A stretch of 64,000 nt of DNA from contig JBDRZY010000001.1 of the NCBI GenBank assembly GCA_039804205.1, positions 222,198 to 286,197 on the forward strand. Reading direction: 5' to 3'. Below the pieces are notes generated by a model. That model ran no database searches, was not told the DNA's origin, and worked only from the letters and a program-made list of their open reading frames with translations. Within the stretch, counting starts at the first letter, position 1; each line of letters starts with the position of its first letter. The translations under genes and the position numbers were made by a program. Positions 10,493 through 41,388 of this stretch are shown here, one piece after another. The stretch comes from a candidate division WOR-3 bacterium. GTDB taxonomy: Bacteria > Hydrothermota > 32-111.

Positions 10493-11310
10493 AACGATTT
10501 TAAAAACATTAAGATCTTTTCAAAATTTTTTATTGGATCTTCGATTGGATCTATGTATAAAATTTTTGCTTTCAGTTCTTTTTCGAAATTTTTAGCATAG
10601 TTCTCTGAGGATCTGTTCGTATAGAAAAAGATTTTAATTTTTTCTTTTGACATTTTTTCAAAAATATTTTTCAGATCTCTTACAGAAATTTCATCCTCAT
10701 TATCGGAGATGGTTTTTATTTCTAAGTTAAACTCCTGTCCAAAGTAGTAAAAAGCGTTATGGTCTGTATAAATGGTGCTCAATTGTTTTTCCTTTATGAT
10801 TTTTTCGATAGATTCTTTTAACGAATCTATTTTGCTATTCAAGATATGAAAGTTTCTGTTCAGATTTTCTTTTTCAACAATGTTGTAAAAGAAAAGCGTA
10901 TCATAAAGAACTTTTGAAAAGATTTTTAGATTATCAAGAGAAATCCAGATGTGTGGATCGTTAACTTTTGTAAGCGATCTGGATAAGTTTATCGTTATCG
11001 AATTTTTTGCCTCTTTCAAAAATTGATTTTTATTTTTTTCTTCAAACTCAATTTTTGAACCAAGTAGAACAAAAATTTTCGATTCTGAAATTCTTTTGAA
11101 GCTGGAAGGAGAAATTTCTGAAATATGTGGATCCATATTCCTTTCGAGAACACTTACACTAACGATTGTGGAATCGAGAAGGTTTTGAAGAAAAGCACTG
11201 ATTGGAAACAGAGTTGAAACGACAACCGTTTTTTTGCTTTTTACATCGCTACACGAGAAAAGGATAAGAACTGTAAAGAATAGAATGAAAAAGATTTTGT
11301 TATTTTTCAT
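10489..11310 (-). CDS. periplasmic metal-binding lipoprotein (ZnuA/TroA-like cluster-9 SBP)
   Basis: Lipobox LFSCS. Candidate metal-ligand motifs DPHISEISPS and DPHIWIS. It is the first gene of a three-gene ABC operon. Confidence 0.65.
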   Translation of the reverse strand: MKNNKIFFILFFTVLILFSCSDVKSKKTVVVSTLFPISAFLQNLLDSTIVSVSVLERNMDPHISEISPSSFKRISESKIFVLLGSKIEFEEKNKNQFLKEAKNSITINLSRSLTKVNDPHIWISLDNLKIFSKVLYDTLFFYNIVEKENLNRNFHILNSKIDSLKESIEKIIKEKQLSTIYTDHNAFYYFGQEFNLEIKTISDNEDEISVRDLKNIFEKMSKEKIKIFFYTNRSSENYAKNFEKELKAKILYIDPIEDPIKNFEKILMFLKSL

Positions 11311-13985: not shown

Positions 13986-15050
13986 CTAAATTGTTATTGG
14001 AACTGTTAAAGTTAAATAGTAATCAAATTTTCCTATATAATACCTTTCGAGTGTTGATTCAAAACATAGATCGACTCTAACAGAGTTGGAGTTGTACCCT
14101 ACCCCCAGATCTATTATTGCTGTACTGAGTGTTGGGAGTTCTTTAAATGATGTTCCGATCCTGATACTTGGTGATCCTTTTTTTAAATCGTCCCAGAAAG
14201 AGTTTGTCTTTTCTGAGATTTCAAAAAATGTGTATTCACCACCCAACGTGTAAACGAAAGGTGTTTCATTTCTTAAAAATTTGGAAACATTAAAGTTGAA
14301 CAAAAGGTTTGGGTTTGGAACAAAAGATATTCCGAGATTACCATTCATGGGAATTATCTGTTTATCGTAAGAGTCCCAATAGATATGGGTCAGAATATCT
14401 CTGAAAACAAGAGATATAAAAAGATTTGATAGGGATAGAACCAATCCTCCATCAAGACCATAACCGTTACCATAGGATATATCAGCAAAACCATCGATGA
14501 TGTTACCTGAAGAATCATAGGATAGTTTCGCTTCAGCGATTTTTCCATTTAGGTATTTCAGGTTGATTCCAAAATATATTGGAGAGGAAAATTTTTCATT
14601 AAAACCTGTGAAACTTGTTAAAGACAACCAGTACTGGTCAAGTTTCATTTCAAAATCTCTCTCTATGTTCAAGGAATCAAAAAATGAATCCCTGTAGGAG
14701 ATTTTGAAAAGGGGCATATAACTGAGTCCACCCTGATAGGTTGAAATCGTAAAAAAAGAAATATTTTTCCCGTAAACGGATTGTTCCTTTTGAATGAATT
14801 CAGCATAAGAAGAGAAATGATCCGTTTCAAAGGATAAAGATATTCCTCCGGAATTTAGACCGGAAAGTGTTGCAGGATTATAGAATGTGGAACTTATATC
14901 ACCCATAATCGATGTTCCGTTACCACCTAAACCTCTGATTCTTGCAGATGGAAAAATCGTTGGATAATCTGTTGGAATTGGGACTTTGTCTGGAAAAACG
15001 AAAACGAACGTAAAAAAGAAAAGTATCAAACAGAATGGTTTTTTACACAT
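13986..15050 (-). CDS. outer-membrane beta-barrel protein, FadL/PorP-SprF-like
   Basis: Signal peptide followed by the N-terminal motif ARIRGLGGNG...DISSTFYNPATLSGL (NPA-type motif of FadL/PorP families). Glycine- and aromatic-rich alternating beta-strand pattern. Confidence 0.45.
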   Translation of the reverse strand: MCKKPFCLILFFFTFVFVFPDKVPIPTDYPTIFPSARIRGLGGNGTSIMGDISSTFYNPATLSGLNSGGISLSFETDHFSSYAEFIQKEQSVYGKNISFFTISTYQGGLSYMPLFKISYRDSFFDSLNIERDFEMKLDQYWLSLTSFTGFNEKFSSPIYFGINLKYLNGKIAEAKLSYDSSGNIIDGFADISYGNGYGLDGGLVLSLSNLFISLVFRDILTHIYWDSYDKQIIPMNGNLGISFVPNPNLLFNFNVSKFLRNETPFVYTLGGEYTFFEISEKTNSFWDDLKKGSPSIRIGTSFKELPTLSTAIIDLGVGYNSNSVRVDLCFESTLERYYIGKFDYYLTLTVPITI

Positions 15051-15053
15051 TTT

Positions 15054-16118
15054 TTAATATTCCATCTCCTTTTCTTCACCTTTTAAAACCCTTAATGCAC
15101 CCATAACTAGAGCCAGTATTTCATCCTCTCCCGGGTATACGATCACGGGTGCAATAAATTTTGTTCTTTCAACTATTATATCTATTAAACATTTATTGTA
15201 AGCGATTCCACCTGTGACAAGTATCGCATCAACCTTTCCATAGAGAACTGTAGCCATAGCACCTATTTCTTTTGAAACCTGATACATCATGGCTGAAAGT
15301 ATAAGTTCAACTTTTTTATCTCCTTCATTCATAAGTTTTACAAGTTCTGAAATGTTATCGTTCTTGAGATAAGAATAGACTCCGCCCTGCATGGTCAACA
15401 TTTTTTTTACATCCTCATATTCCATCTTTTTTGATATGATGAGTTTTGAAAGTTGGGTGACTGGTAAGGTTCCAGTTCTTTGTGGAGAGAAAGGCCCTTC
15501 ATCGTTAGCGTTATTCACATCTATCATTCTTCCATTTTTATGGGCGGAAACAGATATACCGGTTCCAAGATGAACAACTATAAGAGAGGATTTAAAATAA
15601 TCTTTGTTGTTTTCCTTTGCCCATCTTTTTGCTATCATTTTCATATTCAAAGCGTGTGAAAGAGATTTTCTTTCAATACCTTCAAGACCTGAAATTCTTG
15701 CGATATCATCGAACTCATCGACGGAAACTGGATCAACTATGAATTTTTTCTGTTTTTGATCTACTGCCAATTTTTCTGCTATAAGACATGCAAGGTTTGA
15801 TACATGATCTGCAAGCACGTTTCCAGACAAAACATCATCGATCATTTTTTGGTTTATGGAGTAGGTTCCAGATTTCAACGGCTTGAATGGTCCACCCCTT
15901 GCTACAAAAACATCGATTTCTTCAAGTTTGATATTTTTCTGTTTCAAAAAATCTTTTACAACCTGAACTCTCATATCGAGTTGATCGATCGTTTTTTTGA
16001 ACTTCTGAATATCATCGTTGTGATGTCTCAAAGATTCAGTAAAAACTTCATTTTCATCTTCATAATAACCGATCTTTGTTGAAGTTGCTCCAGGATTTAT
16101 CGCAAGAATTTTGAACAT
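15054..16118 (-). CDS. buk: butyrate kinase (acetate/butyrate kinase family)
   Basis: N-terminal MFKILAINPGATSTKIG. ASKHG superfamily motifs (HLGTGISVSA, VTGGIAYN). 354 aa. Confidence 0.85.
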   Translation of the reverse strand: MFKILAINPGATSTKIGYYEDENEVFTESLRHHNDDIQKFKKTIDQLDMRVQVVKDFLKQKNIKLEEIDVFVARGGPFKPLKSGTYSINQKMIDDVLSGNVLADHVSNLACLIAEKLAVDQKQKKFIVDPVSVDEFDDIARISGLEGIERKSLSHALNMKMIAKRWAKENNKDYFKSSLIVVHLGTGISVSAHKNGRMIDVNNANDEGPFSPQRTGTLPVTQLSKLIISKKMEYEDVKKMLTMQGGVYSYLKNDNISELVKLMNEGDKKVELILSAMMYQVSKEIGAMATVLYGKVDAILVTGGIAYNKCLIDIIVERTKFIAPVIVYPGEDEILALVMGALRVLKGEEKEMEY

Positions 16119-16120
16119 TT

Positions 16121-17296
16121 TTACTCCTTTGTCTCTTCTCTGTTTATTTTTGATAGTTGAACAAATTTTATCGCTTTTATGATCTCATATTTGTCCACAA
16201 GGTAAGAGTTGTTCAAAACTAGCCCTGAACCCATATCGTTTGCCTTTGTGTACAATGAATAGATGTTTTCATATTTTTCCATGTTTCCTTCGATCTTAAA
16301 AATAGAGTTTACAAGTTCTATGATTTTGGGGTGTGTTACAATTTTACCATCAAAACCCATATCCCATGAAATTCTCAGTTCCTCTTTTATCTCATCATTG
16401 TTGTCTATTTTTGAAGTTGTTGTATCAAAAGCCATTATATTCGCAGCTTTTACCTTTGTTATAAATTCAAGTTTAGCAAAATAGATATGGTCTGTAATGT
16501 TATCGGAAGGAAGAGCAAGAGATGTTAAATATTCTTTAACGTTTAAGATCGCTCCAAAAACTCTGTCGGAAACTGAAGAGATCTCATACAGGTTTACCAA
16601 TCCTTTGACAGATTCAATGGAAGGGACCAGCATTATCCTGTTAAAAATTTTATATTTTTTTTCTGCTTTCTCTACCAACTCCAGGGTTTTTTTTACATCG
16701 AACTCTGTTTCACATTTGGTTAATACAAAAAAATCTGGAGAGAACTGGGTAAGATAATCTATATCATCGTTACCACCAAGATCGAGAGGATTTATTTTTA
16801 CCATCCGAAATATCGTTTCATTCAACTTTTCGTTTAAAAAATTTCCAACAAGGATTCTTGAACTATCTTTTTCGTTCAAAGGGATCCCTTTGTAGAGATC
16901 TAAAAGATATGCATCAGGTTTCAATTTAAAAGAGTCATTCAGATATTTTGGGTTGTTGACATTGATTTTGAAGATCGTTCTTATCGGTTGATATTTCAAA
17001 TCCATCTTTTCAACATAAATCTTTTTTTCAATTTCCTGTGACGCTCTTTTTATAACGGTTTCCATTCTCGCTTTGATTATAAAGTCAGGTGCACCAAAAT
17101 CTTTTATCAGGATTTTTGCGTTAACTATACCGTAGAAATTCAGGATTTGATCAACAAGATTTTTTATTTTTATGAACTGTTCTTCTCCAGAATTTGACGA
17201 AACTTCAATGTCAATACCGTTTTCAGCTGGTTCAATTTTTACGAGAACATCATAGGGGTTTTCAGAACCACAGATAGATTCTTTTCTTATCTCCAT
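16121..17296 (-). CDS. fusion of citrate lyase ACP (CitD-like, residues ~1-95) with citrate lyase beta subunit / HpcH-family citryl-CoA lyase (CitE-like)
   Basis: The N-terminus aligns closely with CitD (MEIRK..., EEQF, ENAKI, IKAR). Residues 95-391 align with CitE (PDAYLLDL, EKD, LVPSIESVKG, FDGK). The prosthetic-group Ser14 position reads Pro, and the DLED motif reads DLYK. Confidence 0.65.
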   Translation of the reverse strand: MEIRKESICGSENPYDVLVKIEPAENGIDIEVSSNSGEEQFIKIKNLVDQILNFYGIVNAKILIKDFGAPDFIIKARMETVIKRASQEIEKKIYVEKMDLKYQPIRTIFKINVNNPKYLNDSFKLKPDAYLLDLYKGIPLNEKDSSRILVGNFLNEKLNETIFRMVKINPLDLGGNDDIDYLTQFSPDFFVLTKCETEFDVKKTLELVEKAEKKYKIFNRIMLVPSIESVKGLVNLYEISSVSDRVFGAILNVKEYLTSLALPSDNITDHIYFAKLEFITKVKAANIMAFDTTTSKIDNNDEIKEELRISWDMGFDGKIVTHPKIIELVNSIFKIEGNMEKYENIYSLYTKANDMGSGLVLNNSYLVDKYEIIKAIKFVQLSKINREETKE

Positions 17297-17304
17297 CCTG
17301 CCTC

Positions 17305-18495
17305 CTAATATTTTTCAGTGAGAGCATACTCGTAAAGTTTTTTTAATAAAGCGAGTCCAGAATTTTTTGAGAAGTTTCTGAAAGCGTACTGATGACAGAA
17401 AAGGGAACACTTCTTTTTAAAATTTTTTTCAACCATTTCCAGGATACCTTTGTAAAAGTTTTCTATGTTGATCTCTTTTAAAACTTTTCCATTTTCGTTG
17501 TTAACAAAAAATTGTAATTCTCCAACATCTGAAGATAAAACCGGTGTCCCCATAGCAAAAGATTGCAATGCAACTGTTCCAAACTGTTCAAATCTTAAAG
17601 GTAAAACAACAAGATCAGCAATATGGAATACTGTTGGTCTCTCTTCATACGTTAAATCTGGAAAATACAGGAAATGTTTGTGATCGGTTTTTACAATATC
17701 CTCTACCTCTTTTCTGAAATCTCCTTTTCCTGTAAAAATGAAACATATATCCTTTCGCATTTCCAGAATTTTTTTTGCGCATCCGATCGAAATGTCAGCT
17801 CCCTTCATATAGTTTAAACTTTCGGGAAACAAAACAGTATATTTTATTTCATCACTTATTCCAAAATATTCTCTATATGTTTCAAAGTTGTCATCGATAA
17901 ATTTGAACTGATCATCATCGTATCCTTTATAGATCAATTTCAATTTTACAGCATCGAGTTTGAATTTTTCCCTCAACAGTAACTCTATCTGTTTTGATGG
18001 AGCAACTATAAATCTTGAGTACTCAACAGCTTTGTTAACATACGCTTCGTATCTGATATCTTCAGAGGATACCTGTATCTCGTTTCCAAAACTTGTTGAA
18101 ACAAGAGGTATGTCATTTTTTATCTCTCCGAGAATTTTTGTGTTTATCCACAGATATTGTGAATGTATGATATCAGGATTGAAATATTCAATTATTTTTG
18201 CTAACGCGATATTTAAATATTTTTCATAAATTTCTATTTCCTGTAAAGTCATCTGATAGAAATTTTTATCGGTGTGTGGATGTGTTGTGAAACAGGGGAA
18301 TTTAAAAGGTATCTTATTGTTTCCAAAATACAGAGTTGTTATTTTAAATTGTTCGTTGTATTTTGTTTCCTCATTGTCAAAATTCACAACCAGAACTTCA
18401 TCGCCTTGGTTTACAAGGTATGTGGCTATATCTTTTGAATATATTCCACTCTGAGAAGCGACCAAAGGAAAAGGAGTAACTATTAAAACTTTCAT
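17305..18495 (-). CDS. glycosyltransferase family 4 (GT-B, RfaB-like)
   Basis: N-terminal MKVLIVTPFP and the C-terminal retaining-GT motif FEQFGTVALQSFAMGTPVLSSDVGE. Confidence 0.7.
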   Translation of the reverse strand: MKVLIVTPFPLVASQSGIYSKDIATYLVNQGDEVLVVNFDNEETKYNEQFKITTLYFGNNKIPFKFPCFTTHPHTDKNFYQMTLQEIEIYEKYLNIALAKIIEYFNPDIIHSQYLWINTKILGEIKNDIPLVSTSFGNEIQVSSEDIRYEAYVNKAVEYSRFIVAPSKQIELLLREKFKLDAVKLKLIYKGYDDDQFKFIDDNFETYREYFGISDEIKYTVLFPESLNYMKGADISIGCAKKILEMRKDICFIFTGKGDFRKEVEDIVKTDHKHFLYFPDLTYEERPTVFHIADLVVLPLRFEQFGTVALQSFAMGTPVLSSDVGELQFFVNNENGKVLKEINIENFYKGILEMVEKNFKKKCSLFCHQYAFRNFSKNSGLALLKKLYEYALTEKY

Positions 18496-18499
18496 CTAC

Positions 18500-19588
18500 T
18501 CAATCTCCCAAAGATATCTGTAATCTTCTCGCTGTTTCAACGAGTTGCCCATAGGGGTCTACAAGTTTCTGTTTACTTATGCTCTCCTCGATTGGTCTTG
18601 AAACTATTTCTGTCCCAACCAAACTGACCATATATCCAAACTTTTTTTGTGCTATCAGATCACAAACCTCAACACCAAACCTTGAGGATAATATTCTATC
18701 ATATGCTGTTGGAGATCCACCTCTTTGGATATGACCCAAAATTGTTGTCCTGATCTCCATATCCGTTTTTTCACTTAGTAGGGAAGCGATATAGTTACTT
18801 ATTCCTCCATATCGTGGTAATGTTCCCTCGTTTTTTGCTTTTTCTATGTAGTGTTTATCTTTTCCTTTTTCGTAGGCACCCTCAGCAACAACGATTATTG
18901 AAAAGTGTGAACCTCTCGAGTTTCTCTCATTTATTTTTTCTATGATTTTATCGATACTGAAAGGTATTTCGGGAATGAGTATTATGTCAGCGCCTCCTGC
19001 TATACCGGAATTTAAAGCTATCCATCCAGCATCCCTTCCCATTACTTCAACGATCATGATCCTGTGATGTGATTCTGCTGTTGTATGCAATTTGTCTATA
19101 GCATCGGTTGCTGTGTTTACAGCTGTAAAGAAACCAAATGTATAATCGGTCTTTGCAAGATCGTTATCGATCGTTTTCGGTACTCCGACGATGTTGGCTC
19201 CCTTTTTATAGAGTTGGTATGCGATATTTAAAGTTCCATCTCCCCCTATCACGATCAATCCATCGATTCCGAATTTTAAAATATTTTTTAAAATTTCATC
19301 CGATTTATCCTCTGTTACTGTTTCCCCATTTTTTTTCGTAGGATATTTGAAAGGGTTTCCTCTGTTTGATGTGCCAAGTATTGTTCCACCTTTTGGAAGT
19401 ATACCTTTGATGGTGTTTAAATCCATTTTAAAAATTTTGTCTGGCATTATCAATCCATCAAAACCATCCATTATCCCAAACACTTCCCAGCCATAGTGCA
19501 GAATAGCAGATTTAACTGATGCTCTGATCACAGCATTTAATCCTGGACAATCACCACCACCGGTTAATATTCCAATCCTTTTGATCAT
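18500..19588 (-). CDS. pfkA: 6-phosphofructokinase
   Basis: GILTGGGDCPGLNAVIRA, GGDGT, PKTIDND and MGR motifs. 362 aa. Carries Gly at the 104-equivalent and Lys at the 124-equivalent position. Confidence 0.9.
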   Translation of the reverse strand: MIKRIGILTGGGDCPGLNAVIRASVKSAILHYGWEVFGIMDGFDGLIMPDKIFKMDLNTIKGILPKGGTILGTSNRGNPFKYPTKKNGETVTEDKSDEILKNILKFGIDGLIVIGGDGTLNIAYQLYKKGANIVGVPKTIDNDLAKTDYTFGFFTAVNTATDAIDKLHTTAESHHRIMIVEVMGRDAGWIALNSGIAGGADIILIPEIPFSIDKIIEKINERNSRGSHFSIIVVAEGAYEKGKDKHYIEKAKNEGTLPRYGGISNYIASLLSEKTDMEIRTTILGHIQRGGSPTAYDRILSSRFGVEVCDLIAQKKFGYMVSLVGTEIVSRPIEESISKQKLVDPYGQLVETARRLQISLGD

Positions 19589-19723: not shown

Positions 19724-19915
19724 TTAATTTTTCCTTCTGTCTTTTACAAGGTTTTCAAAAGATCTATCGTAAGTTTTTTCTCCATCTTTAGAAAAAAAAC
19801 AACCTGGAAATTCATTGTATTTTCTATGGTATGCGACACATTCACAACATTTTCCATGTCTGGCACACCCTGGATAAGTACATAAACATTCATTGGTGTT
19901 GTTACACTTCTGCAT
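19724..19915 (-). CDS. small Cys-rich protein (CxC...GCxRHGKCCEC...H...C; putative metal-binding)
   Basis: 63 aa with 8 Cys in a regular pattern (CNNTNECLCTYPGCARHGKCCECVAYH...PGCFF). Its 3' end overlaps the upstream gene by 14 nt. Confidence 0.45.
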   Translation of the reverse strand: MQKCNNTNECLCTYPGCARHGKCCECVAYHRKYNEFPGCFFSKDGEKTYDRSFENLVKDRRKN

Positions 19916-22900
19916 CTTTCTCCTCCAGTTTTTTTAACAGATCTTCACAACTTTTTATGAGATTCTCTTTTTTCAATTCTTTTGCTATTTTTAGTGATTC
20001 TTTCGAAAGTTTTAAAGATAATTTAAAGTTTTTCATCTCATAAAGAAGCAGGGCACGATGGTACAAGAAATGACTTAACGGATATCTTGCATTCATCTCT
20101 TTTATTATTTTTATACATTTTTTAAAATATTCATCAGCTTCCTTGTATTTCTTCTGGAGTTTAAAAAGTTGTCCAATGTTTCCAAGATCTATTGCTTCAG
20201 ACCATTTACTGCCTATCTTTCGGTCAACCTCAAGTGCCTCTTTATAATATTTGAGGGATGATTCCCAGTCCTCTTTTGATCCATAAATGTTTGCAATGTT
20301 ACCCAAAATTATTGATTCGTTTTCAAGATTGTTTATCTCTTTGTCGATCTGTAAAGCTTTAAAAAGATAATCGAGAGCTTTATCAGTTTCTCCCATTTCA
20401 TTGTAAACGGTTCCAATGTTACCTAAAGTTACACCTTCATTTCTTCTGTTACCTGTTTTTCTGTTAAGATCAAGGGAAACGAAATAATTTTTTAGTGCCT
20501 TATCGTATTCCTGCTTTTCATAATGTATGAGTCCTATTCTAAGATGGAACAGAGCCTGATCGGAAAGGTTGTTGTTCTTCTTCGCGTAATCGAGTGATCT
20601 TGTATAATACTCCATAGCTTTTTCATAGTTTCCCTGACGGTAGAGTAAAAGCCCGAGATTTGAATAAATTGAAAATCTTTTTTCTATATCCTTTTTCGCA
20701 TATTTTAATGCGATGTTGAACATTTCTTTCGATTTTGAATAATCACCTCTGTTGTAGTATACGATTCCGATCTTTTCATAAACATCTGAAATCTCTTTGT
20801 TGTCTTTTAAAGTGTTAACTATTTTTAAACTCTTTTTATATTCTGAAAGTGCTTTTTTGTAATCACCCATCGCCCAGAAAGAATTCCCGATGCCTTTCAA
20901 AACTATAGCTTTTGTTTTTGATTTAAGATTCTGTTCCCTTAAAATTTTTTTATATTCTTTTATTGAATCTTTATACTTTCCGATGTGTGATAGTATTTCA
21001 GCTTTTTTAATAGTGAACAGGATCCTTTCATCTTTTTTTATTCTATATTGAAGATACTGGTCTATAAGTTTTATGGCATTCTCATTTGAAAAAGATGATA
21101 TATCCTTTTCAATCGATTTTTTTAAATAATATATCGCTTTGTTTTTGACATTTGCCTTAGAAAAATGGTAGTAGAGAGTTTCATAGTAATTTATCAGGTT
21201 TTCTTTAAAAAGTGTTTCATAAAGTTCACCGATTTTTCGATGTAATTTTTCTACCACCTTTTTAAACTGCATTTTGTAAGTTATCTCGTATAAAAGAATA
21301 TGTCTGAAAAGTGCGGTTTTATCGGAAATGACTGTGATTATCTTATTTTTTTCAGCTTCTGAAAGGATCTTGTTTACATCCTTTTTCTCAACCAGAAATG
21401 AAAGCAAAAGTATTTCAAACTCTTTTCCAATGATGGAGGCTTTTTGAACTCCATCTCTTGTAATCGCTGAAAGCGAATCGAGTCGAGACACTATCAACCT
21501 GTCTATATTCGATGGTATTTCATAATCTGTTTCCTTTAAACTTATAACCCCATCTCTGTTAATAAGAAATCCATTGTTCACAAGGTGAACTGAAAGCTGT
21601 TCAAGGAATAACGGATTACCTTCACTTTTTTGCCATAGAGTGTTTAACAGTTCTTTTGAGATCTCGCTTTTAAAAAAGTTCTGCAGAAATGTTTTTACAT
21701 TTTCGAAGTTGAAATTCTCAAGTTTTATAAAGATCGATTCACATCCTAATTTTTTTAGCCTTTTTATGTTTTCGTTTTCTTCCCTGTAAAGAAAGACGAA
21801 TGGAACTCCTCTGAATTCATACTGATCTCTCAAAAGATAGTTTATAAAATCAACCGTCTCCTGATCAGCCCACATGAAGTCATCGAAAATCAACGCAACT
21901 TTTTTATCTTTAATATTTTTGAAGAGAATATTTTTTAGTGTAAAGAATGTTCCTTCTAATTTTTCTCTCGCTGGTAGGTTCTTTATCAGATATGTTTCAT
22001 CATGGTTGAAAAAATATAGGAGAAAGGAATACAATCGCTCATTTTCGATTTCATAGAATTTTTCATAGTCCTGTGAAAATTTTTTCAAAATCTCTTTTCT
22101 TTTGGTTTCCTTATCAAACGTGTTGATTCCGATTATGTTTGCAAAAAGATTTTTTATAGCCATCATCGGCTCTTTTATTATCGGATCTGCGGTTGTATAA
22201 AGAGGTTCATATCCGAGTTTTGAAAAGAGTTCAAAAGAGATCCTTGTTTTACCTGTTCCACTTTCACCAGAGATGTTGATGATTCCAGCGATCCTTTTCC
22301 GATCAATATTTTTTAAAAATTTTTCAAGTTTTTCGGTTACATATTTTCTTTCGATGAAAGGTGATATAAAATCAAAATTTTTTTTCGGTGTTATATTTTT
22401 AACAGTTAAAACTTTTATCTTTTTTTCTTTTCCTTTAAGGGAGATTTCTGTTTCATCAGAAAATTCAACTCTCTTTGTTTCACATGCCAGCCTTTCGGAA
22501 ACCATAACACCGAATTTATTTAGAGTTGCGATTCGTGCCGAGGTGTTAACTATATCACCAATTACAGTATACTCTTGCCAGAATGCACTTCCAATGAAAC
22601 CTGAATATGTTGTTCCATAGTCAAGGCCGATCGATACTTTTATCCCTTTTTCGTTCAATTGGTTGAATATACCTGTGGAGCAAAGGATCGCTCTCTCAAC
22701 CATATCCTCCTGTGTATAGGGAGCTCCAAAAATGAGAAGTGCCATTCCTCCCTTATCACCGAATTCTATTTTGTTCAAGTATGCATTATAATTTTTTGAA
22801 TTTTCATCGAGTATTTTTAAAAAGAGATCAAGTTTTTCATCATCAAGATCGAATGGGAAATTTATAAAGATTGGAATAACCTTTCTGAATTCTCCTTCGA

Positions 22901-23570
22901 TTTTTAGATCGGAAATGATTTCGGGAAAAAATTTTGAATTTAAACTTTTAAACGGAATGATTTCAATTTTTTCATTCAAGTTTTTGGATGGTTCAAGTTT
23001 CTGATCATCGACTATGAAATATTCGTTTTTGATTTCCCTGATAAAATTTTTATCAATTCTTTCTATAAGGTTTTTATCAACTTTAATTACCGATGATTCG
23101 TTCCCGTGTTGAATCCTTATCGCTGAGTTTATTCCACAACCTCTGAAATAATATATAGATCTTTCATTGTTAAAGATTGCCCAATCTATATTACCTGAGG
23201 ATATACCTAACCTGATATTCAGTTTCACTCCACCTTTTCTGTTGAGATTTGAAAAAATATCAAGTATCTGTTTTGAGACCTGGAGCACATCGATAAATGA
23301 TTTTTCATCTAAAAATATTGCAGTGAAAGCATCTCCAGAAAACGATGTTATGAAACCATTATTTTTATATATAATATCTGTTACATTTCCAAGAGTTCTA
23401 TTCAAAATATTTCCAAGTATCTCCGCTCCCTCTTTGTCTTTTTTCATGAGATTTTCTACCATGGGTGTGAAATTTTCAATATCACCACTTACAACATAAC
23501 CAAAAAAGTTACCTTTTGTGAGGTTTAAATTTATCTTATCTATTATAAAAGAAGGTACTAAATTCCTCAT
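19902..23570 (-). CDS. multidomain signalling protein: tandem class III nucleotidyl cyclase domains + STAND/AAA ATPase + C-terminal TPR array
   Basis: Second cyclase domain FGDKGGMALLIFGAP...IGLDYGTTYSGFIGS...YTVIGDIVNTSARI. Walker A GESGTGKT and Walker B ALIFDDFMWAD. More than 8 TPR repeats follow. The first cyclase-like domain spans residues ~20-190. Confidence 0.8.
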   Translation of the reverse strand: MRNLVPSFIIDKINLNLTKGNFFGYVVSGDIENFTPMVENLMKKDKEGAEILGNILNRTLGNVTDIIYKNNGFITSFSGDAFTAIFLDEKSFIDVLQVSKQILDIFSNLNRKGGVKLNIRLGISSGNIDWAIFNNERSIYYFRGCGINSAIRIQHGNESSVIKVDKNLIERIDKNFIREIKNEYFIVDDQKLEPSKNLNEKIEIIPFKSLNSKFFPEIISDLKIEGEFRKVIPIFINFPFDLDDEKLDLFLKILDENSKNYNAYLNKIEFGDKGGMALLIFGAPYTQEDMVERAILCSTGIFNQLNEKGIKVSIGLDYGTTYSGFIGSAFWQEYTVIGDIVNTSARIATLNKFGVMVSERLACETKRVEFSDETEISLKGKEKKIKVLTVKNITPKKNFDFISPFIERKYVTEKLEKFLKNIDRKRIAGIINISGESGTGKTRISFELFSKLGYEPLYTTADPIIKEPMMAIKNLFANIIGINTFDKETKRKEILKKFSQDYEKFYEIENERLYSFLLYFFNHDETYLIKNLPAREKLEGTFFTLKNILFKNIKDKKVALIFDDFMWADQETVDFINYLLRDQYEFRGVPFVFLYREENENIKRLKKLGCESIFIKLENFNFENVKTFLQNFFKSEISKELLNTLWQKSEGNPLFLEQLSVHLVNNGFLINRDGVISLKETDYEIPSNIDRLIVSRLDSLSAITRDGVQKASIIGKEFEILLLSFLVEKKDVNKILSEAEKNKIITVISDKTALFRHILLYEITYKMQFKKVVEKLHRKIGELYETLFKENLINYYETLYYHFSKANVKNKAIYYLKKSIEKDISSFSNENAIKLIDQYLQYRIKKDERILFTIKKAEILSHIGKYKDSIKEYKKILREQNLKSKTKAIVLKGIGNSFWAMGDYKKALSEYKKSLKIVNTLKDNKEISDVYEKIGIVYYNRGDYSKSKEMFNIALKYAKKDIEKRFSIYSNLGLLLYRQGNYEKAMEYYTRSLDYAKKNNNLSDQALFHLRIGLIHYEKQEYDKALKNYFVSLDLNRKTGNRRNEGVTLGNIGTVYNEMGETDKALDYLFKALQIDKEINNLENESIILGNIANIYGSKEDWESSLKYYKEALEVDRKIGSKWSEAIDLGNIGQLFKLQKKYKEADEYFKKCIKIIKEMNARYPLSHFLYHRALLLYEMKNFKLSLKLSKESLKIAKELKKENLIKSCEDLLKKLEEKDAEV

Positions 23571-23613: not shown

Positions 23614-24654
23614 TTACCTTTTTGTTTGAGGCACTGGAGGATTTAAAATTATTGTATCTGTTGAACCATCAGGGTATGTGGCAACCATAATCGAAAGATG
23701 GTTGACATCCTCTGGATTCCAGAAATATCCTTCAAGATCTGCTGCATGTGTTCCTTTGAATTTTAACTCTCCAGTATAATCGGTCTTTGTGTAAATAGAA
23801 TCAACTTCAACAGGTTTTTCAGCATTTATCACAAGGAACCACCCCTCTTTGTTCTCCATCGTGAAATCTGTTGTTTCGTCACTGTTCATCTTTACAGTGT
23901 ATTCGTTCCAGTCATCGTTAACAAAATCCTCTATCTTTGCTCTTAAAGAATCGATGATAACTGTTGTATCACCACTCTCATGTCCTACATAATCGAGTTC
24001 AAGAGCGACTTCATTTGTTATCTCAAAGTGTGTCTGTAAATCTGTCGGTTGATACTGATCGTAATCATAACCTGAAATCGTTGTGTACTGGGCATTCATC
24101 CTCATCCACATCAACCTGCTGCTATTTGCTGAAAGTTCGACATACATTTTTGTTGGTGTCTGTTCATAGGGATCACCGGAGTAATACTGCAATGAATCGA
24201 ACAGAAATCTCATGTTGTAGGTTGTTCCAAGTGAATCTATAAATATCCATTTGAAAAGGTACCCGTTAGCAGGGTATGAGTTATCAACAAGGACAAAATC
24301 ATAGTATTCGTATCCCCATGGATCTGTCAATGTATCGTATTGGTATGTTCCATAAACAGTATCGAACAAAAGTTGAACGCTCTTCACATCTGGTCTGAAA
24401 GGATTTCTAAACGAGATTGAAGGGAACAGGAATGTACCTTTTGATGTTCCGCCTTTGTTGAAGAAGTCGTTTGCAGCAGCCATACTTAAAGTTGTATTTT
24501 CACCGTTATACTGTGAAGTTGGATCGTTAATTGAGTTTTCAAAGTCGTTTAAAAATGTTTTTGTATCATCCACACTCACCTTTTGTGGCAAAAGGAAACA
24601 GGAAGTTAAAATAAGTGAAAACATAACAGGGAAAAATAGAATCTTTTTCATCAT
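23614..24654 (-). CDS. secreted lipoprotein, function unknown (acidic, Tyr/Asp-rich)
   Basis: Signal peptide plus lipobox (LILTSCF). 346 aa with no recognisable catalytic motif. Confidence 0.55.
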   Translation of the reverse strand: MMKKILFFPVMFSLILTSCFLLPQKVSVDDTKTFLNDFENSINDPTSQYNGENTTLSMAAANDFFNKGGTSKGTFLFPSISFRNPFRPDVKSVQLLFDTVYGTYQYDTLTDPWGYEYYDFVLVDNSYPANGYLFKWIFIDSLGTTYNMRFLFDSLQYYSGDPYEQTPTKMYVELSANSSRLMWMRMNAQYTTISGYDYDQYQPTDLQTHFEITNEVALELDYVGHESGDTTVIIDSLRAKIEDFVNDDWNEYTVKMNSDETTDFTMENKEGWFLVINAEKPVEVDSIYTKTDYTGELKFKGTHAADLEGYFWNPEDVNHLSIMVATYPDGSTDTIILNPPVPQTKR

Positions 24655-29446: not shown

Positions 29447-31333
29447 ATGAAAAAATGTATTATATTCATTTTTATCTTTTTCTCCCTGGTGAAAATATTT
29501 TCATCCCATATATATGTTTATGACAAAAATAGTGGTGAAAAAATATATTATGTCACAGTTTTTTCTGACGGTAAACTTTATCAAACAAAAACTCCGTTTG
29601 AAATAGAAAAAGGAAAAGAGATAACAGTTTCTTCTTTAGGATACAAATCTTTAACATTTAAAGTTCTTGAAGAAACTTTAAGGGTATATCTTGAAATCGA
29701 ACCTTTTACCTATAAACCGCTTATAGTTGAAAAAGAAAAGATAAAAGGTGAAGTTTTAAAATTGGAGACGGGAAACAAAAATCCGGTTTCGATTATAAAA
29801 AAAATTCCCTCTATAACTTTAAGAGAGTATAATAGAAACTATGTGATTTCTGTGGATGGACTTTTAAATGAAGATAATCAGATTTGTATTGATGGTGTTC
29901 CAATCGTTAACCAGCAGTCAAGAACAGTTCCAGTAAACCTTTTACCAAAAAATCTTTTTTCATCAATTGGTTTTTATAAGAATGGTATATCACATTTTTA
30001 TGGTGAAAACATTTTTTCCTCTGGAATAAATTTTGAAATAGAGAAACTTGACAGATCGAAAGTGAATATAAATATTGATGACAAAAAGTCTTATGATCTT
30101 GATCTAACATTATCGTTCAAAGGTTTTAAATTAGGAAACGAGACTTTTGATAGAAATGATATGGTTATACCAGGAAGAGAAAAAATTTTAAACTCATATC
30201 AAAAGGGATATTTGAATTATTTTTATTTTAATAATGGTTTTTTCTCAACTTTAATGATCGATGGTAGAGTCAAAACAGGTGATCCTGGAATTTTAGGGCA
30301 TAGATTTTTTAACTCAACGATTTATGAGAAGAGTAGAATTATAAATTTTAAATTTTTAACTGCAAAAAACCTGGAAATTCTCTATTCACATAATCTATAC
30401 ACCTATGTTTACGACAATAAAGATCTGGTAATCTATGACACTTCAAAAACATGTTCTGATAATATAATTCTGAATTATAACGATCTGCAAAACCGTTTTG
30501 GAATCTTTTTTCAAAAAAACTGGATAGTATCAACTAAAGTTTTATTTTTGAATGAATTTTTTTATGGGATCTTTTCAAATTTTGATGTAAAATCTTTTGA
30601 AATTTCAAATTCTTTTTCAATCTCATCCACATTGAAAAATGATAAGTTTAAGAACGATTTTGTGTACACTTTCTCAATTTTAAAAGTTTTCAATTTTGAT
30701 GAATATCTTGTAACACACTCCATCAAAATCTCAACCAGAAGACCAACTTTCAATGAACTTTACTGGACAGGAGATATTTTTACTAGTGGGAACGAAAAAC
30801 TTGTAAACGAAAAACTTTATTCATATTATCTTGCTTTTTCAAAAGAAAATAAGAAATTTTTTGGTGGATTCAATTTTTACAAAGACCTTATAAGATGGAT
30901 CAACATAAATGGTGTTTATACTCCCGAAAATATTTTAAAAACTTATAACCCTTACATAGGTCTTCAATACAACAAGAATATATTGAATTTTAACAACTCT
31001 CTTGTATTCACCATATCACCGATGTATCTAGATAGGTTCAGGATGCTTTTATACACATCTTTTGTAAACCTGAACTATTCTTTAAGTTACGAGTTTAAAA
31101 ATTTAATTTTTTATCTTTATTTTGAGTATCGATCGAAGAGATTTTTAAACAATGAAAACACGAAATACTTACCACCATATTTCTGTTTGGATGAAGTGAG
31201 TTTGGATTATAGATTGAAGAGTTTGTCTATTACACTTTCGATCGATAATCCGTTCGATTTGAAAATTGAAAGTGTGAGAGGTTATATAAAAGAAGGAAGA
31301 AAATTCTCTTTAAACCTAAAAATGGAGGTATGA
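29447..31333 (+). CDS. TonB-dependent outer-membrane receptor (SusC/BtuB-like; N-terminal CarboxypepD_reg-like domain + plug + short barrel)
   Basis: Signal peptide. CarboxypepD_reg-like segment (KEITVSSLGYKSLTFKV). Plug motif ISVDGLL...ICIDGVPIVN...NIFSSGINFEIEK. Tyr/Asn-rich beta-barrel. Under B12 riboswitch control. Confidence 0.7.
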   Translation: MKKCIIFIFIFFSLVKIFSSHIYVYDKNSGEKIYYVTVFSDGKLYQTKTPFEIEKGKEITVSSLGYKSLTFKVLEETLRVYLEIEPFTYKPLIVEKEKIKGEVLKLETGNKNPVSIIKKIPSITLREYNRNYVISVDGLLNEDNQICIDGVPIVNQQSRTVPVNLLPKNLFSSIGFYKNGISHFYGENIFSSGINFEIEKLDRSKVNINIDDKKSYDLDLTLSFKGFKLGNETFDRNDMVIPGREKILNSYQKGYLNYFYFNNGFFSTLMIDGRVKTGDPGILGHRFFNSTIYEKSRIINFKFLTAKNLEILYSHNLYTYVYDNKDLVIYDTSKTCSDNIILNYNDLQNRFGIFFQKNWIVSTKVLFLNEFFYGIFSNFDVKSFEISNSFSISSTLKNDKFKNDFVYTFSILKVFNFDEYLVTHSIKISTRRPTFNELYWTGDIFTSGNEKLVNEKLYSYYLAFSKENKKFFGGFNFYKDLIRWININGVYTPENILKTYNPYIGLQYNKNILNFNNSLVFTISPMYLDRFRMLLYTSFVNLNYSLSYEFKNLIFYLYFEYRSKRFLNNENTKYLPPYFCLDEVSLDYRLKSLSITLSIDNPFDLKIESVRGYIKEGRKFSLNLKMEV

Positions 31334-32286
31334 TGAAAAAATTTTTTGTTATTCTGTCCGTTTCATTGATTCTGCTGTTAAACATTTCCTGTACTCTTTT
31401 TAAAACTGAGAAGATGGAAAGTTCAATCTACATTCTTGATTGGGAAAAGGAAGCGGTTTACACTATAGATTCTCTATTCCAGATTGGAACAACTCCTCTT
31501 TTGATAACAGGTTCAGCACCTACAGATGTATATGTTGACGATGGAAATATTTACATTACAAATTCAGGTTTTGGAGGGATACCAACGATCGAAAAGTTTG
31601 ATCTCTCTGGAAATAAAATTGCGCAGATAGAGAGGGGAGAATTGAGTTCTCCTGCATATATTGAAGGTAATCAGGATTATATTTTTGTTACAGATTGGCT
31701 TTCGAATTCTATTTTAAAGATAGAAAAGAAAAATTTTTCAATAGTAGATTCATTGTCAGTTACAGCACCACAGGAGGTTGTTTACAGGGATGGATTTTTA
31801 TATGTAGGATCAAACAATACATCTTTAAATGGACATATATATAAAATATCTGAAGATTTTAAAAATCTTGAAACAGATCTTGCAAAAGGTTCAAATCCAT
31901 CCTATCTTGATCTTGATGAAAACAATCAAATCTATGTTTCTCTTGTTGGTAACTATAACGACATAAAGGGTAAAATAAAGAAGGTAAAAGATGGTGTTGA
32001 TGTTGATTCTTTAGGATTCGATAATTTTCTTGGAAAAGTTAAGGTTGTTGAAGATAAAATTTTTATAACAGATATCTACAATAAATTGTATATACTCGAT
32101 TCAGATTTGAATCTCATAAAAACTATTGAAATTCCATCACCTTCAGATATTGAATATTTTAAAGGAAAAGTGGTTGTTTCAACAAATGTTGGAAAATTAT
32201 ATCTTATAGATTTTTCAGAACTTACATTGGTTGATTCTTTGAGTTATGAAATACCCCTAAAGGTTGCTGAAATGTTTGTAAAATAA
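31330..32286 (+). CDS. surface lipoprotein with YVTN-type beta-propeller repeats (candidate B12-capture accessory, BtuG-like by context)
   Basis: Lipobox LLNISC. Repeated ~40-aa blades (DVYVDDGNIYITNSG, QDYIFVTDWLSNSI, DGFLYVGSNN, NQIYVSLVGN, DKIFITDIYN, KGKVVVSTNVGKLYLID). Translationally coupled (ATGA) to the TBDT. Confidence 0.55.
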   Translation: MMKKFFVILSVSLILLLNISCTLFKTEKMESSIYILDWEKEAVYTIDSLFQIGTTPLLITGSAPTDVYVDDGNIYITNSGFGGIPTIEKFDLSGNKIAQIERGELSSPAYIEGNQDYIFVTDWLSNSILKIEKKNFSIVDSLSVTAPQEVVYRDGFLYVGSNNTSLNGHIYKISEDFKNLETDLAKGSNPSYLDLDENNQIYVSLVGNYNDIKGKIKKVKDGVDVDSLGFDNFLGKVKVVEDKIFITDIYNKLYILDSDLNLIKTIEIPSPSDIEYFKGKVVVSTNVGKLYLIDFSELTLVDSLSYEIPLKVAEMFVK

Positions 32287-39612: not shown

Positions 39613-41388
39613 ATGAAAAAATCCATTATTTTTTTGTTAAGTTTTTTGGTCATTTTTGTGATGCTATTCCCTCAAAATTTCAGTAATGTGAGAATATTTT
39701 TATGGGATAACGATAATGGACTTACCTTTAAAGATCCTGATAATTCAGATAAATATATAGGATATGAAGAAAATCTAAGACAATCTTTTGAATTTCTTGG
39801 GTTTTCAAAAGATTCCCATAATCTTGACATAAACAATACTTTACCCCCAATAAATGAACTATTGCAGTATGGTGCAGTTTTTATAACATGTGGACCTCGA
39901 CCCGCTTTAACCACTATAATTTCCCAGAGTGATATAGATAAACTGAAAGAATACCTTGATAGTGGTGGTTGTTTATACCTTGAAGGTAACAATATTGCAG
40001 ATTATCTTGATAGAACAGATAAAAATTTTTTGAATTCCTATTTTAACAATTACTTACTTTACAGTGGTGGAGCAAACTATTCCTATGTTGAAACAGTTTA
40101 TACAGATACAACATCAAACTTTTGTAGATATTATGAATTTGTGTATCCTGCTGGGACTGCACCTGATTACTCTATAGATCAACTTGGAAACTTTTATGGA
40201 CTTGGAGAACCTTACTATTATCCATTCCTTGTTTTCAATGCCAAAGGGAAACTTTATAGATCAACAGCAACAGCGTATACTCCACCTGAATCAAAAGCAC
40301 CATACTATTTCCCTGGAAAGACAGTGATGCAAACAACAGATTTTGGTGCCTACGCTTTTCCTTATAAACAGGGTAAAGATATACCAGATTCGATGAAAAA
40401 TATTCTGATAAGAACAAGTTATCTAAGAGATATTTTGAGATTCTTCTCAATCGGAAGAACTCTTGTGATACAGGATGATGGACAGGTAGCAAAAGCAACC
40501 TATGATCTTTTAAAAGCACTTGATAACAATGGAATAGAATACTTTTATATAAACTTAAAACCTACGGGGACCTACCCAACCTATACTTTTCTTTCGAAAT
40601 TTACAACAGTTATTCTTTATACAGGTGAATATGGTGAACCTTTTGTTTTACCTAACGATACATTCAATCTTCAGAGATATCTGACTTACGGAGGCAACAT
40701 TTTGGTATCGGGCGAAAATCTTGCCCAATCGTATGGAATACCTGGACAGAACTTACAAACTGATGAATTTCCATTTTTAGCATACTTCTTATGGATCGAT
40801 TACAGATCAAGTATATACGATGATATTTTCTTTACAGCAGATAAAACAAGTTTTTATTCTTTAAATCCATATACATCTTTAATACAACAGGTTGAAGCAA
40901 CTTCTTCAAAAGTTGATTATGTGATGCCTTTCCCAAGAGACACTTTTGTTAAGGTAAACTATTTTCTTGGTAAATCAAAGGCACCTGTATATGTTGGTGT
41001 TAACAATGTTGCGAAAACACATAAATCAGTTTTTTTTGGTTTCCCGCTTGAATACATTGATGGTAAAAATCTTGATCAGTTGATAAAAGAGACGTTTTCA
41101 AACTTTTTTGATTATGATCTTAGTTTTAATCTAACAAGAACAAATGAGACAACTCAAAAAGAGATTATCACCAAAGATAAAGAAGAAAAAGGTAAGATCT
41201 ATTTTTCTGGAAATAAGATCATTCTTGAAAATATTAACTCTGCAAAACTTGTTGATTGTTACGGAAAGATTTTGAAAACTCTTTACCATGGAGAAAATGA
41301 TTTAAAAGAAGTACACAGAAATGGATTATTCTTTGTAATTTTCAAGGAGAACAACACTTTTAAAAGCATAAAACTTTTAAAGTTTTAA
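39613..41388 (+). CDS. secreted protein with T9SS-type C-terminal sorting domain (Por_Secre_tail-like)
   Basis: Signal peptide. The last ~70 aa (KIYFSGNKIILENINSAKLVDCYGKILKTLYHGEND...GLFFVIFKENNTFKSIKLLKF) fit the T9SS CTD pattern. The N-terminal 500 aa are of unknown function. Confidence 0.5.
   Translation: MKKSIIFLLSFLVIFVMLFPQNFSNVRIFLWDNDNGLTFKDPDNSDKYIGYEENLRQSFEFLGFSKDSHNLDINNTLPPINELLQYGAVFITCGPRPALTTIISQSDIDKLKEYLDSGGCLYLEGNNIADYLDRTDKNFLNSYFNNYLLYSGGANYSYVETVYTDTTSNFCRYYEFVYPAGTAPDYSIDQLGNFYGLGEPYYYPFLVFNAKGKLYRSTATAYTPPESKAPYYFPGKTVMQTTDFGAYAFPYKQGKDIPDSMKNILIRTSYLRDILRFFSIGRTLVIQDDGQVAKATYDLLKALDNNGIEYFYINLKPTGTYPTYTFLSKFTTVILYTGEYGEPFVLPNDTFNLQRYLTYGGNILVSGENLAQSYGIPGQNLQTDEFPFLAYFLWIDYRSSIYDDIFFTADKTSFYSLNPYTSLIQQVEATSSKVDYVMPFPRDTFVKVNYFLGKSKAPVYVGVNNVAKTHKSVFFGFPLEYIDGKNLDQLIKETFSNFFDYDLSFNLTRTNETTQKEIITKDKEEKGKIYFSGNKIILENINSAKLVDCYGKILKTLYHGENDLKEVHRNGLFFVIFKENNTFKSIKLLKF

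Follow-up and report, generated by a model that had tools for sequence, protein, structure and literature searches.

A 64,000-nucleotide (nt) stretch of the genome of a candidate division WOR-3 bacterium (contig JBDRZY010000001.1), here called the window, was found to carry at 16121..17296 an intact open reading frame (ORF) of 391 amino acids (aa) in which a CitD-like and a CitE-like part, related to the gamma and beta subunits of citrate lyase, are fused. The gene and all its parts described below lie on the minus strand, between genes for a family 4 glycosyltransferase (GT4) and a butyrate kinase (buk); its stop codon is at 16121-16123 and an AGGAGG Shine-Dalgarno sequence lies 5 nt ahead of its ATG. 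An earlier note, made from the letters of the DNA only, had described a CitD-CitE fusion, and this was borne out by Pfam and NCBIfam matches of both halves. PF06857 (acyl carrier protein, ACP) matched residues 5-85 (E = 6e-14, 52.5 bits against a cutoff of 25.1, model positions 2-83 of 83) and PF03328 (HpcH_HpaI) matched residues 111-323 (E = 4e-25, 88.8 bits, cutoff 25). The more specific models scored lower than their thresholds, namely citD TIGR01608 over residues 1-90 (57.9 bits, equivalog cutoff 63.5), PRK13253 (63.2 bits, cutoff 65) and citE TIGR01588 over residues 105-385 (148.3 bits, E = 2.4e-43, equivalog cutoff 443.4). As the CitD half scores above the Pfam cutoff and below the equivalog thresholds, it is by score a homologue of CitD that stays short of equivalog level. 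E. coli CitE is 26% identical to the fusion over 295 residues.

The AlphaFold2 model of the fusion has a predicted local distance difference test score (pLDDT) of 87.1 and a predicted template modelling score of 0.85. The CitD/MdcC-like N-terminal domain (aa 1-90, 17027..17296), delimited by the PF06857 match and the predicted secondary structure, is modelled with strands at 7-9, 17-22, 28-34 and 59-66 and helices at 38-55 and 71-85, in agreement with the MdcC fold as described in PMC5534430. Residue mapping for this half relied on that published description; a PDB sequence search with E. coli CitD, made for a solved CitD structure, gave chance matches only (E >= 0.1). An interdomain linker (aa 86-104, 16985..17041) without regular secondary structure, with a pLDDT of ~51 at residues 91-100, leads to the CitE-like TIM barrel (aa 105-330, 16307..16984), assigned from PF03328 and Foldseek and modelled as eight beta/alpha units, and to a C-terminal lid domain (aa 331-391, 16124..16306) with a helix/beta-hairpin/helix arrangement. 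The top Foldseek matches of the model were malyl-CoA lyases, CLYBL, citramalyl-CoA lyase and CitE of Mycobacterium tuberculosis (Mtb), with E values of 1e-20 to 1e-14. Since the model is confident and the best PDB matches are all CitE-like lyases, the fold is taken as intact.

The active site of the barrel is remodelled. The earlier note had read the DLED motif of CitE as DLYK and had found the metal-binding Glu of SIES in place, and alignment of the protein agreed with it on both counts: D133-L-Y135-K136 (16889..16900) replaces D-L-E-D (D42, E44 and D45 of MCLR), and Glu228 (16613..16615) is the retained Mg-ligand Glu (MCLR E141). The alignment disclosed further changes that the note had not mentioned. 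The catalytic Arg of the VRIN motif (R76 of MCLR and E. coli CitE) is Lys167 (VKIN, 16796..16798), and the stretch N252-V-K254-E255 (16532..16543) replaces G-A-E-D, such that the Mg-ligand Asp of the GAEDY motif (MCLR D168) is Glu255, preceded directly by Lys254 where the family has Glu, while the Gly at position 252 is Asn; many more family-conserved residues are altered as well. The lid Asp, Asp368 (codon 16193-16195; MCLR D299), is retained. Thus the catalytic and metal-binding set D42, E44, D45, R76, E141, D168 and D299 of MCLR reads D133, Y135, K136, K167, E228, E255 and D368 in the window protein, with three identical residues, two conservative changes and two radical ones. R147 had been considered as the catalytic Arg and was ruled out, the equivalent of MCLR R76 being position 167.

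In MCLR, D42 is the partner of the catalytic Arg R76, E44 and D45 hold two Mg-bound waters, E141 and D168 are Mg ligands, and D299 is the lid Asp; absolute conservation of E44, D45 and both Mg ligands is described for CitE-like enzymes as well as for malate synthases (PMC3832036). The same paper states, at review level, that all members of the CitE-like/malate synthase superfamily need Mg2+ or Mn2+ (PMC3832036). In Rv2498c of Mtb the substrate carboxylate is held in position by the G-A-E-D loop, whose Gly makes contact with the 3-substituent (PMC6689899).

Among genomes, metagenome-assembled genomes (MAGs) of candidate division WOR-3 come closest, at 97% and 95% identity; one related MAG is labelled TA06. 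The window protein, its orthologues at five loci (L001-L005) and four further protein clusters (P0001-P0004), at 59-97% identity, are together designated clade A. DLYK occurs in all of clade A, except for DLYR in L003. Down to 59% identity, Y135, K167, E228 and D368 are invariant in the clade, K136 is replaced only by the Arg of L003, and residue 255 is always a carboxylate. The L003 contig (DYMB01000001.1) is labelled 'Acetofilamentum sp.', a Bacteroidales genus; it is syntenic gene for gene with the WOR-3 MAGs at 48-89% protein identity, and the label is probably wrong. A second set of WOR-3 fusions, 37-39% identical to the window protein, has canonical CitE motifs; identity to the syntenic citF-linked fusions of WOR-3 is 37-38%, and to typical members of the fusion family 25-28%.

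A residue audit covered 98 positions, each at least 85% conserved among 185 other fusions. In clade A 35 of these were kept, 25 partly kept and 38 replaced. All nine conserved positions of the CitD-like domain were kept (G10, D16, S34, D66, G68, A69, A76, R77 and E79), and the losses cluster in the barrel, at and near the catalytic and metal-binding motifs. At the sites described above the other fusions are nearly uniform, with E in 183/185 and D in 182/185 at DLED, and R in 182/185 at position 167. Family-conserved charged residues have also been replaced in clade A, mostly by uncharged ones (R105, R108, R151, E163, R264, E270 and K365).

In the CitD-like domain, position 14, at which E. coli CitD has Ser14, is Pro (codon 17255..17257), as the earlier note had proposed. 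The alignment from G10 to D16 is gapless and both anchors are conserved (G10 in 168/179 and D16 in 179/179 of the other fusions, and both in E. coli CitD), so the assignment is unambiguous and places no Ser or Thr at the prosthetic-group position. Within clade A residue 14 is P, N or S and residue 17 is V, I or L, and no Ser or Thr is conserved throughout the clade anywhere in loop residues 7-16. The note had gone on to take the missing serine as a sign of repurposing, and this argument had to be abandoned. Of 179 fusions that do not belong to clade A, 142 have Arg at position 14, 29 have Lys, 3 Ser and 1 Thr, a basic residue thus occurring in 171/179, citF-linked fusions included; because the absence of Ser14 is a family-wide trait, shared by members adjacent to citF, it does not indicate repurposing here. 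The usual loop motif of the fusions is G-x-x-[VI]-R-S-D-C, also with [RK] at the basic position, and Cys17, present in 146/185, adjoins the old attachment site of the prosthetic group. The window protein has neither the basic residue 14 nor Cys17.

The fusion family itself is large. A profile search gave dozens of 50%-identity clusters of full-length CitD-CitE fusions, and in a second search PF06857 and PF03328 were both present in all 120 best-scoring proteins listed; the hosts are Ignavibacteria, Bacteroidota, Acidobacteriota, WOR-3 and other groups. The window protein conforms to this two-domain architecture of ~390-410 aa and nests within the family in neighbour-joining trees. In Ignavibacterium album, IALB_1147 is a CitE-CitD fusion adjoining CitF, IALB_1146 (PMC3362086). 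In the same way, citF, for the alpha subunit, directly follows the fusion gene in 9/9 readable loci (L008, L009, L011, L012, L013, L014, L016, L017 and L018), and all nine citF-linked fusions have a canonical or near-canonical catalytic set. No citC, citX or citG was found in the flanks of these nine loci, which were covered to 8-10 kb at most and in two cases by contigs of 2.8 and 6.5 kb. Concerning the few fusions that retain Ser14, the 465-aa neighbour of P0013 is an aconitase and not CitXG, and the contig of P0027 is only 2.8 kb long.

The fusion-citF pair was located at 1861-4709 in L011, 8001-10871 in L012, 8001-10776 in L013 and 2323-5054 in L018. The flanks of these loci and of L019 contain aconitase large/small pairs and genes for an HD-domain protein, PrpD/MmgE and isocitrate/isopropylmalate dehydrogenase-family proteins, which in these other phyla could hint that the substrate is citrate or another tricarboxylate of its kind, methylcitrate or homocitrate for example. 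The pattern suggests that a citrate-lyase-type module which works without the classical prosthetic group is widespread. Fusions with Arg or Lys at position 14 and no citC, citX or citG nearby may form with CitF a prosthetic-group-free citrate lyase acting on free CoA thioesters, and such a lyase may occur in Ignavibacteria, Acidobacteriota, WOR-3 and others. CitD-CitE fusions and their missing Ser14 are therefore nothing particular to the window; what is special to its lineage is the orphaning of the fusion and its remodelled site.

Partner genes were searched for in 64 kb of the source genome and in 21 kb of each related genome. With E. coli CitC, CitD, CitE, CitF, CitX and CitG as tblastn queries, only the fusion gene was matched in the 64-kb window, the accessory genes giving nothing at E <= 1, and Pfam scans of ~45 window ORFs found no CitF, CitX, CitG or CitC family (PF03802, PF01874 and PF08218 included). 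The statement of the earlier note that no citF, citC, citX or citG lies nearby was thereby corroborated. 

The earlier note had also suggested comparing the neighbourhood in related taxa, and this comparison put the gene in a different light. Nine WOR-3 loci share a common block of at least 13 genes in one order. In this order come genes for a lipoprotein, a TPR/AAA/cyclase protein of ~1220 aa, 6-phosphofructokinase (PFK), GT4, the fusion, in some lineages citF, and buk; after buk follow genes for an outer-membrane protein, an EIIA protein of the phosphotransferase system (PTS), a zinc ribbon protein, a LUD-domain protein (missing in L006), MgsA and ZnuABC. In L008, L009, L014 and L016, citF (PF04223, 512-515 aa) lies exactly between the fusion and buk, and the WOR-3 CitF matched PDB 2hj0 at 5e-148. 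The window and L001-L005 have no gene in this slot, which takes up ~1.55 kb in the sister lineages and is reduced in the window to a 2-nt spacer (16119..16120) from the stop codon of the fusion to the start of buk. Given the 13-gene synteny with citF-linked fusions, the window gene is their positional orthologue and not a stray paralogue.

L006 and L007 are also without citF at the locus. A neighbour-joining tree was built from five flanking proteins (1407 columns, 200 bootstraps), with 100% support at every split. These two fell inside the citF-containing lineages L014 and L016, and the whole group was separate from clade A; as they are nested among citF-containing lineages, citF has been lost at least twice. 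In L008 the stop codon of citF overlaps the start of buk (10712-10715, ATGA-type), as in the citF-containing relatives, and in the window the last codons of the fusion gene contain the buk Shine-Dalgarno sequence (GGAG, within 16116-16130), which indicates that translational coupling to buk was re-created after the deletion.

The rate of evolution of the fusion in this lineage was also unusual. When the window, L006 and L008 were compared, the window branch of the fusion was longer than the average of the two remaining branches by a factor of 3.03, a ratio that was 0.33-1.08 in eight neighbouring genes; the long stem of clade A is visible in the trees as well. Within the clade the ratio of nonsynonymous to synonymous substitution rates (dN/dS) of the fusion is 0.031 (window-L001), 0.036 (window-L002) and 0.083 (L004-L005), to be compared with 0.033-0.068 for buk and 0.031-0.082 for the GT4 gene in the same pairs. 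The barrel alone has a dN/dS of 0.017-0.048 and the CitD-like domain one of 0.05-0.11, and six genomes and the four clusters P0001-P0004 have intact full-length copies. The fusion is thus under purifying selection as strong as that on neighbouring housekeeping genes.

Loss of citF next to a fusion was encountered elsewhere, each time with a damaged metal site. In L006 (8845-10032) and L007 (10001-11188) the Mg-ligand Asp is replaced by Asn (D255N); L007 also has lid D368N, and L006 carries Lys254 as clade A does. The dN/dS of the L006/L007 fusion is 0.110, like that of its neighbours (0.08-0.11), which shows that selection can maintain a fusion even where citF and the canonical metal ligand are gone. 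Three more fusions have no citF adjoining in their locus neighbourhoods: P0041 with DLKN, E228Q and D255E, P0044 with DLEK, D255N and no lid, and P0141 with DLAD, D255E and no lid. The loci of the further orphans (L019 5001-6260, L020 5001-6050 and L021 1002-2045) have degenerate metal sites and unrelated contexts; two (349 and 347 aa) stop short of the lid, and P0041 (419 aa) adjoins opposite-strand genes for aconitase, phosphoenolpyruvate mutase and Iso_dh. Overall, the Mg-ligand Asp is replaced in 5/5 citF-less lineages (clade A, L006/L007, P0041, P0044 and P0141) and in 0/9 citF-linked fusions, an association whose significance (Fisher p = 5e-4) is inflated, P0041, P0044 and P0141 having been picked for their odd motifs. 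As the replacements differ from one orphan lineage to another, the pattern fits an abandoned old chemistry better than convergence on a single new one.

What the comparisons document for the window lineage is a clean deletion of citF, a burst of substitutions and strong constraint thereafter. In the WOR-3 ancestors the fusion stood directly upstream of citF as part of the widespread two-gene citDE-citF module, its 'carrier' domain already being without the prosthetic-group serine. In the window lineage citF was cleanly deleted between the fusion and buk. After this loss a burst of substitutions in the barrel introduced Y135 for Glu, K136 for Asp, K167 for Arg and, beside the new K254, E255 for Asp, and also replaced several Arg, Lys and Glu residues that line the pocket; the remodelled sequence was later frozen by purifying selection.

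With no adjoining alpha subunit, no thiol carrier and no canonical metal site, the protein should be unable to act as a citrate lyase, and we infer that it is not one. It is moderately probable that the fusion is an orphaned gamma-beta citrate-lyase orthologue which lost citF, had its site remodelled and was then conserved for some other job. The earlier note had spoken of a repurposed, possibly non-catalytic module, and synteny, loss of citF, the threefold burst, replacement of the metal site and the later purifying selection all lend weight to that idea. Most likely it has been repurposed and has given up Mg-dependent lyase chemistry, whether as a ligand-binding pseudoenzyme or as an altered enzyme. 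As for the job, the reading we prefer, at somewhat less than an even chance within this frame, is a protein without Mg-dependent C-C cleavage, in which the barrel and lid would bind an acyl-CoA-like or hydroxy-acid ligand and which would serve as a binding, regulatory or structural pseudoenzyme; that the lid still closes over the ligand, as this would entail, is suggested just as tentatively.

Several points weigh against this interpretation. D133, K167, E228, D368 and the carboxylate at 255 are invariant in clade A and no part of the protein is under tighter constraint than the barrel, which would also fit a working, altered site. A metal ion could still be bound by Glu228 and Glu255. The trees are neighbour-joining trees and thus distance-based, dS is saturated for comparisons deeper than the closest pairs, and the association with citF loss is inflated as said above. 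Function has been read from sequence alone, and citF or citC, citX or citG may lie beyond the 64 kb searched here and the 21 kb searched in each relative.

Some of these observations would suit an enzyme with a new function, in which Y135, K136, K167, K254, E228, E255 and D368 form the pocket for a metal-independent, lysine-assisted chemistry. Candidate reactions are of the lyase, thioesterase or aldolase type, on a free acyl-CoA or on a keto or hydroxy acid less anionic than citryl-CoA. Rapid change and then stasis is a pattern classically read as the mark of a new function, and the invariant D133, K167, E228 and D368 with a carboxylate at 255 down to 59% identity, together with a dN/dS that is lowest in the barrel, are what such a catalyst would be expected to display. 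The surroundings of the former metal site have gained about five positive charges (E to Y, D to K and E to K), family Arg and Lys residues have been lost elsewhere (R105, R108, R151, R264 and K365), and Gly252 has become Asn; the charge shifts and the last change together suggest a different, less charged substrate. However, no precedent for metal independence was found in the CitE-like/malate synthase superfamily, and no neighbouring gene changes alongside the remodelling. Metal-site residues also disappeared in the four other citF-less lineages, non-convergently and in two of them together with the lid, which has the look of catalysis being given up and not of a path to a new one. A neofunctionalised catalyst therefore seems rather unlikely, though it is the main rival. 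Its boldest form is less probable again, namely that K136, K167, K254 and Y135 do the work of the Mg2+-water cluster, a change from metal to lysine chemistry within a single TIM-barrel family, and that the protein would be the first metal-independent catalyst in the CitE-like/malate synthase fold, acting on a new, less anionic substrate.

The neighbouring genes offer another way to look for a function. The GT4 gene (17305..18495, minus strand, 396 aa, PF00534 and PF13439) is upstream of the fusion, with 8 nt from its stop codon to the start of the fusion, and the buk gene for butyrate kinase (15054..16118, minus strand, 354 aa; NF002834 467 bits and TIGR02707 449 bits, both above cutoff) begins 2 nt after the stop of the fusion. 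The next co-directional gene, beyond GT4, encodes 6-phosphofructokinase (18500..19588, minus strand, 362 aa; PF00365 E = 2e-111, TIGR02483 above cutoff). These genes might act in one pathway with the fusion, which could for instance make or bind a hydroxy-acid acceptor for a BshA/MshA-like glycosyltransferase or an acyl substrate linked to the acyl kinase. They are co-directional with gaps of 2-8 nt, citF overlaps the start of buk in the citF-containing relatives, and the NCBIfam model that the GT4 protein matches best is the malate glycosyltransferase BshA (N-acetylglucosaminyl-L-malate synthase), though its 59 bits fall far short of the cutoff (273.7). Yet the order GT4, fusion, (citF), buk is kept irrespective of citF or of a canonical site, the block continues into housekeeping genes (outer-membrane protein, PTS EIIA, MgsA and ZnuABC), and fusions of other phyla adjoin aconitase, PrpD and Iso_dh genes instead. 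Because the order predates the change and lineages with citF have it too, and because the block runs on into unrelated housekeeping genes in compact genomes, adjacency says little on function; an assignment from GT4, buk and PFK was rejected, and a shared pathway is considered improbable. Of the tight operon between buk and GT4 that the earlier note had described, the close packing stands; the position itself is inherited synteny, common to the citF-containing relatives, and does not speak for any new partnership in function.

Further ORFs of the window were annotated in passing. A 1222-aa protein with an adenylate/guanylate cyclase domain, an AAA_16 ATPase domain and a long TPR array is encoded at 19902-23570 on the minus strand, and all related WOR-3 loci have it in this place. 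A 63-aa Cys-rich ORF (19724-19915, minus strand) stands between the genes for the cyclase and PFK, and its 57-aa equivalent in L016 belongs to PF20095 (DUF6485); in this interval the sister lineages have in addition a 152-aa ORF and a methyltransferase gene, both of which are missing from clade A. The 354-aa ORF after buk (13986-15050) had no Pfam match even at E <= 1 and is probably an outer-membrane protein, its L016 counterpart having a weak match to TraF_2. It is one of eight ORFs of 318-628 aa without a Pfam match at E <= 1e-5, the others being 29447-31333, 31330-32286, 39613-41388, 42985-44511, 45351-46703, 51440-53020 and 23614-24654.

A working beta-gamma subunit, encoded by a diverged copy and paired with CitF, and perhaps with CitC, CitX and CitG, encoded elsewhere, was also considered. 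Room for such partners exists, as 64 kb of the genome were seen and CitF homologues are very common in metagenomes (7996 at E <= 1e-60 with the L008 CitF as query). Against it, the gene is orthologous by position to the citF-linked copy and not an extra paralogue, the 'absolutely conserved' superfamily residues E44 and D45 are lost and R76 and D168 changed, the Mg-ligand Asp is kept in all nine citF-linked fusions, and loop residues 7-16 of clade A contain no conserved Ser or Thr. The close WOR-3-type CitF from that search whose locus was looked up, the one in L016, sits in the syntenic slot. A complex with distant partners is accordingly very improbable. Least credible of all is a functionless relic decaying into a pseudogene after the loss of citF, for although the partner is gone, the catalytic motifs are altered and the orphans P0044 and P0141 are truncated without a lid, the intact full-length ORFs in six genomes and four protein clusters at 59-97% identity, a dN/dS of 0.03-0.08 equal to that of buk, PFK and GT4, the strong AGGAGG ribosome-binding site and the pLDDT of 87 disfavour it strongly.

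If the reading as a remodelled orphan is right, the locus represents a natural experiment on the fate of a subunit after loss of its complex partner, one that is dated and replicated in five independent lineages. The fusion would have outlived citF five times and lost the Mg-ligand Asp, and in the WOR-3 clade it would have been rebuilt under strong selection; such orphaning and rebuilding is the way in which pseudoenzymes or new enzymes are thought to arise. For clade A the annotations 'citrate lyase ACP', 'citrate lyase subunit beta' and 'aldolase/citrate lyase family protein' would then be misleading, since they would falsely imply citrate fermentation or citrate cleavage by the reverse tricarboxylic acid cycle in WOR-3. 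Independently of this, the Ser14-less carriers pose the question of how the citDE-citF modules of Ignavibacteria and other phyla, which are proposed citrate cleavers, work without a prosthetic group. In the literature we found no paper that connects WOR-3 with citrate lyase, and no description of orphaned or remodelled fusions.

Among known systems, the carrier protein MdcC of malonate decarboxylase belongs to the same family, PF06857, as the N-terminal domain. The topology predicted for the domain, a beta-sheet and two helices, is also alike, and so is the place of the carrier residue at the apex of a beta-hairpin loop. In MdcC it is Ser25 that bears the prosthetic group, and the protein docks on the transferase MdcA (PMC5534430), whereas the equivalent residue of the window protein is Pro and no transferase gene accompanies it. 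The classical citrate lyase of E. coli and Klebsiella pneumoniae has homologous gamma and beta parts with the same fold, but as separate subunits, which are fused here. Its CitD anchors 2'-(5''-phosphoribosyl)-3'-dephospho-CoA on Ser14, an anchor that the window protein does not have, and it is accompanied by the alpha subunit, the ligase, CitX and CitG, none of which is encoded within the 64 kb.

The stand-alone CitE-like enzymes CLYBL, Rv2498c and the malyl-CoA lyases of Rhodobacter, Chloroflexus and Methylobacterium are the best PDB matches of the fusion (5vxc by sequence, E = 2.7e-11; by Foldseek, E = 7e-20 to 1e-14 with template modelling scores of 0.7-0.86 to the target). They are likewise encoded without alpha and gamma genes, and the equivalents of their D42, E141 and lid Asp are kept in the window protein. 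They differ in keeping E44, D45, R76 and D168, for which the window protein has Y, K, K and E, and in needing Mg2+ or Mn2+ (PMC3832036; PMC6689899), and it is the window protein that adds an N-terminal CitD-like domain.

The nearest system is that of the I. album-type CitD-CitE fusions, which are annotated in many MAGs of Ignavibacteria, Bacteroidota, Acidobacteriota and WOR-3. The window protein resembles them in its PF06857 and PF03328 architecture, in nesting within their family, in the absence of Ser14 and in the nine conserved residues of the CitD domain. It departs from them in that they have citF downstream, Arg or Lys at position 14, Cys17 and a canonical catalytic set, all of which it lacks, and in the replacement of 38/98 conserved positions, including E135Y, D136K, R167K and D255E. 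Within this family the citF-linked fusions of the sister WOR-3 lineages stand closest by locus, and the window gene is their positional orthologue.

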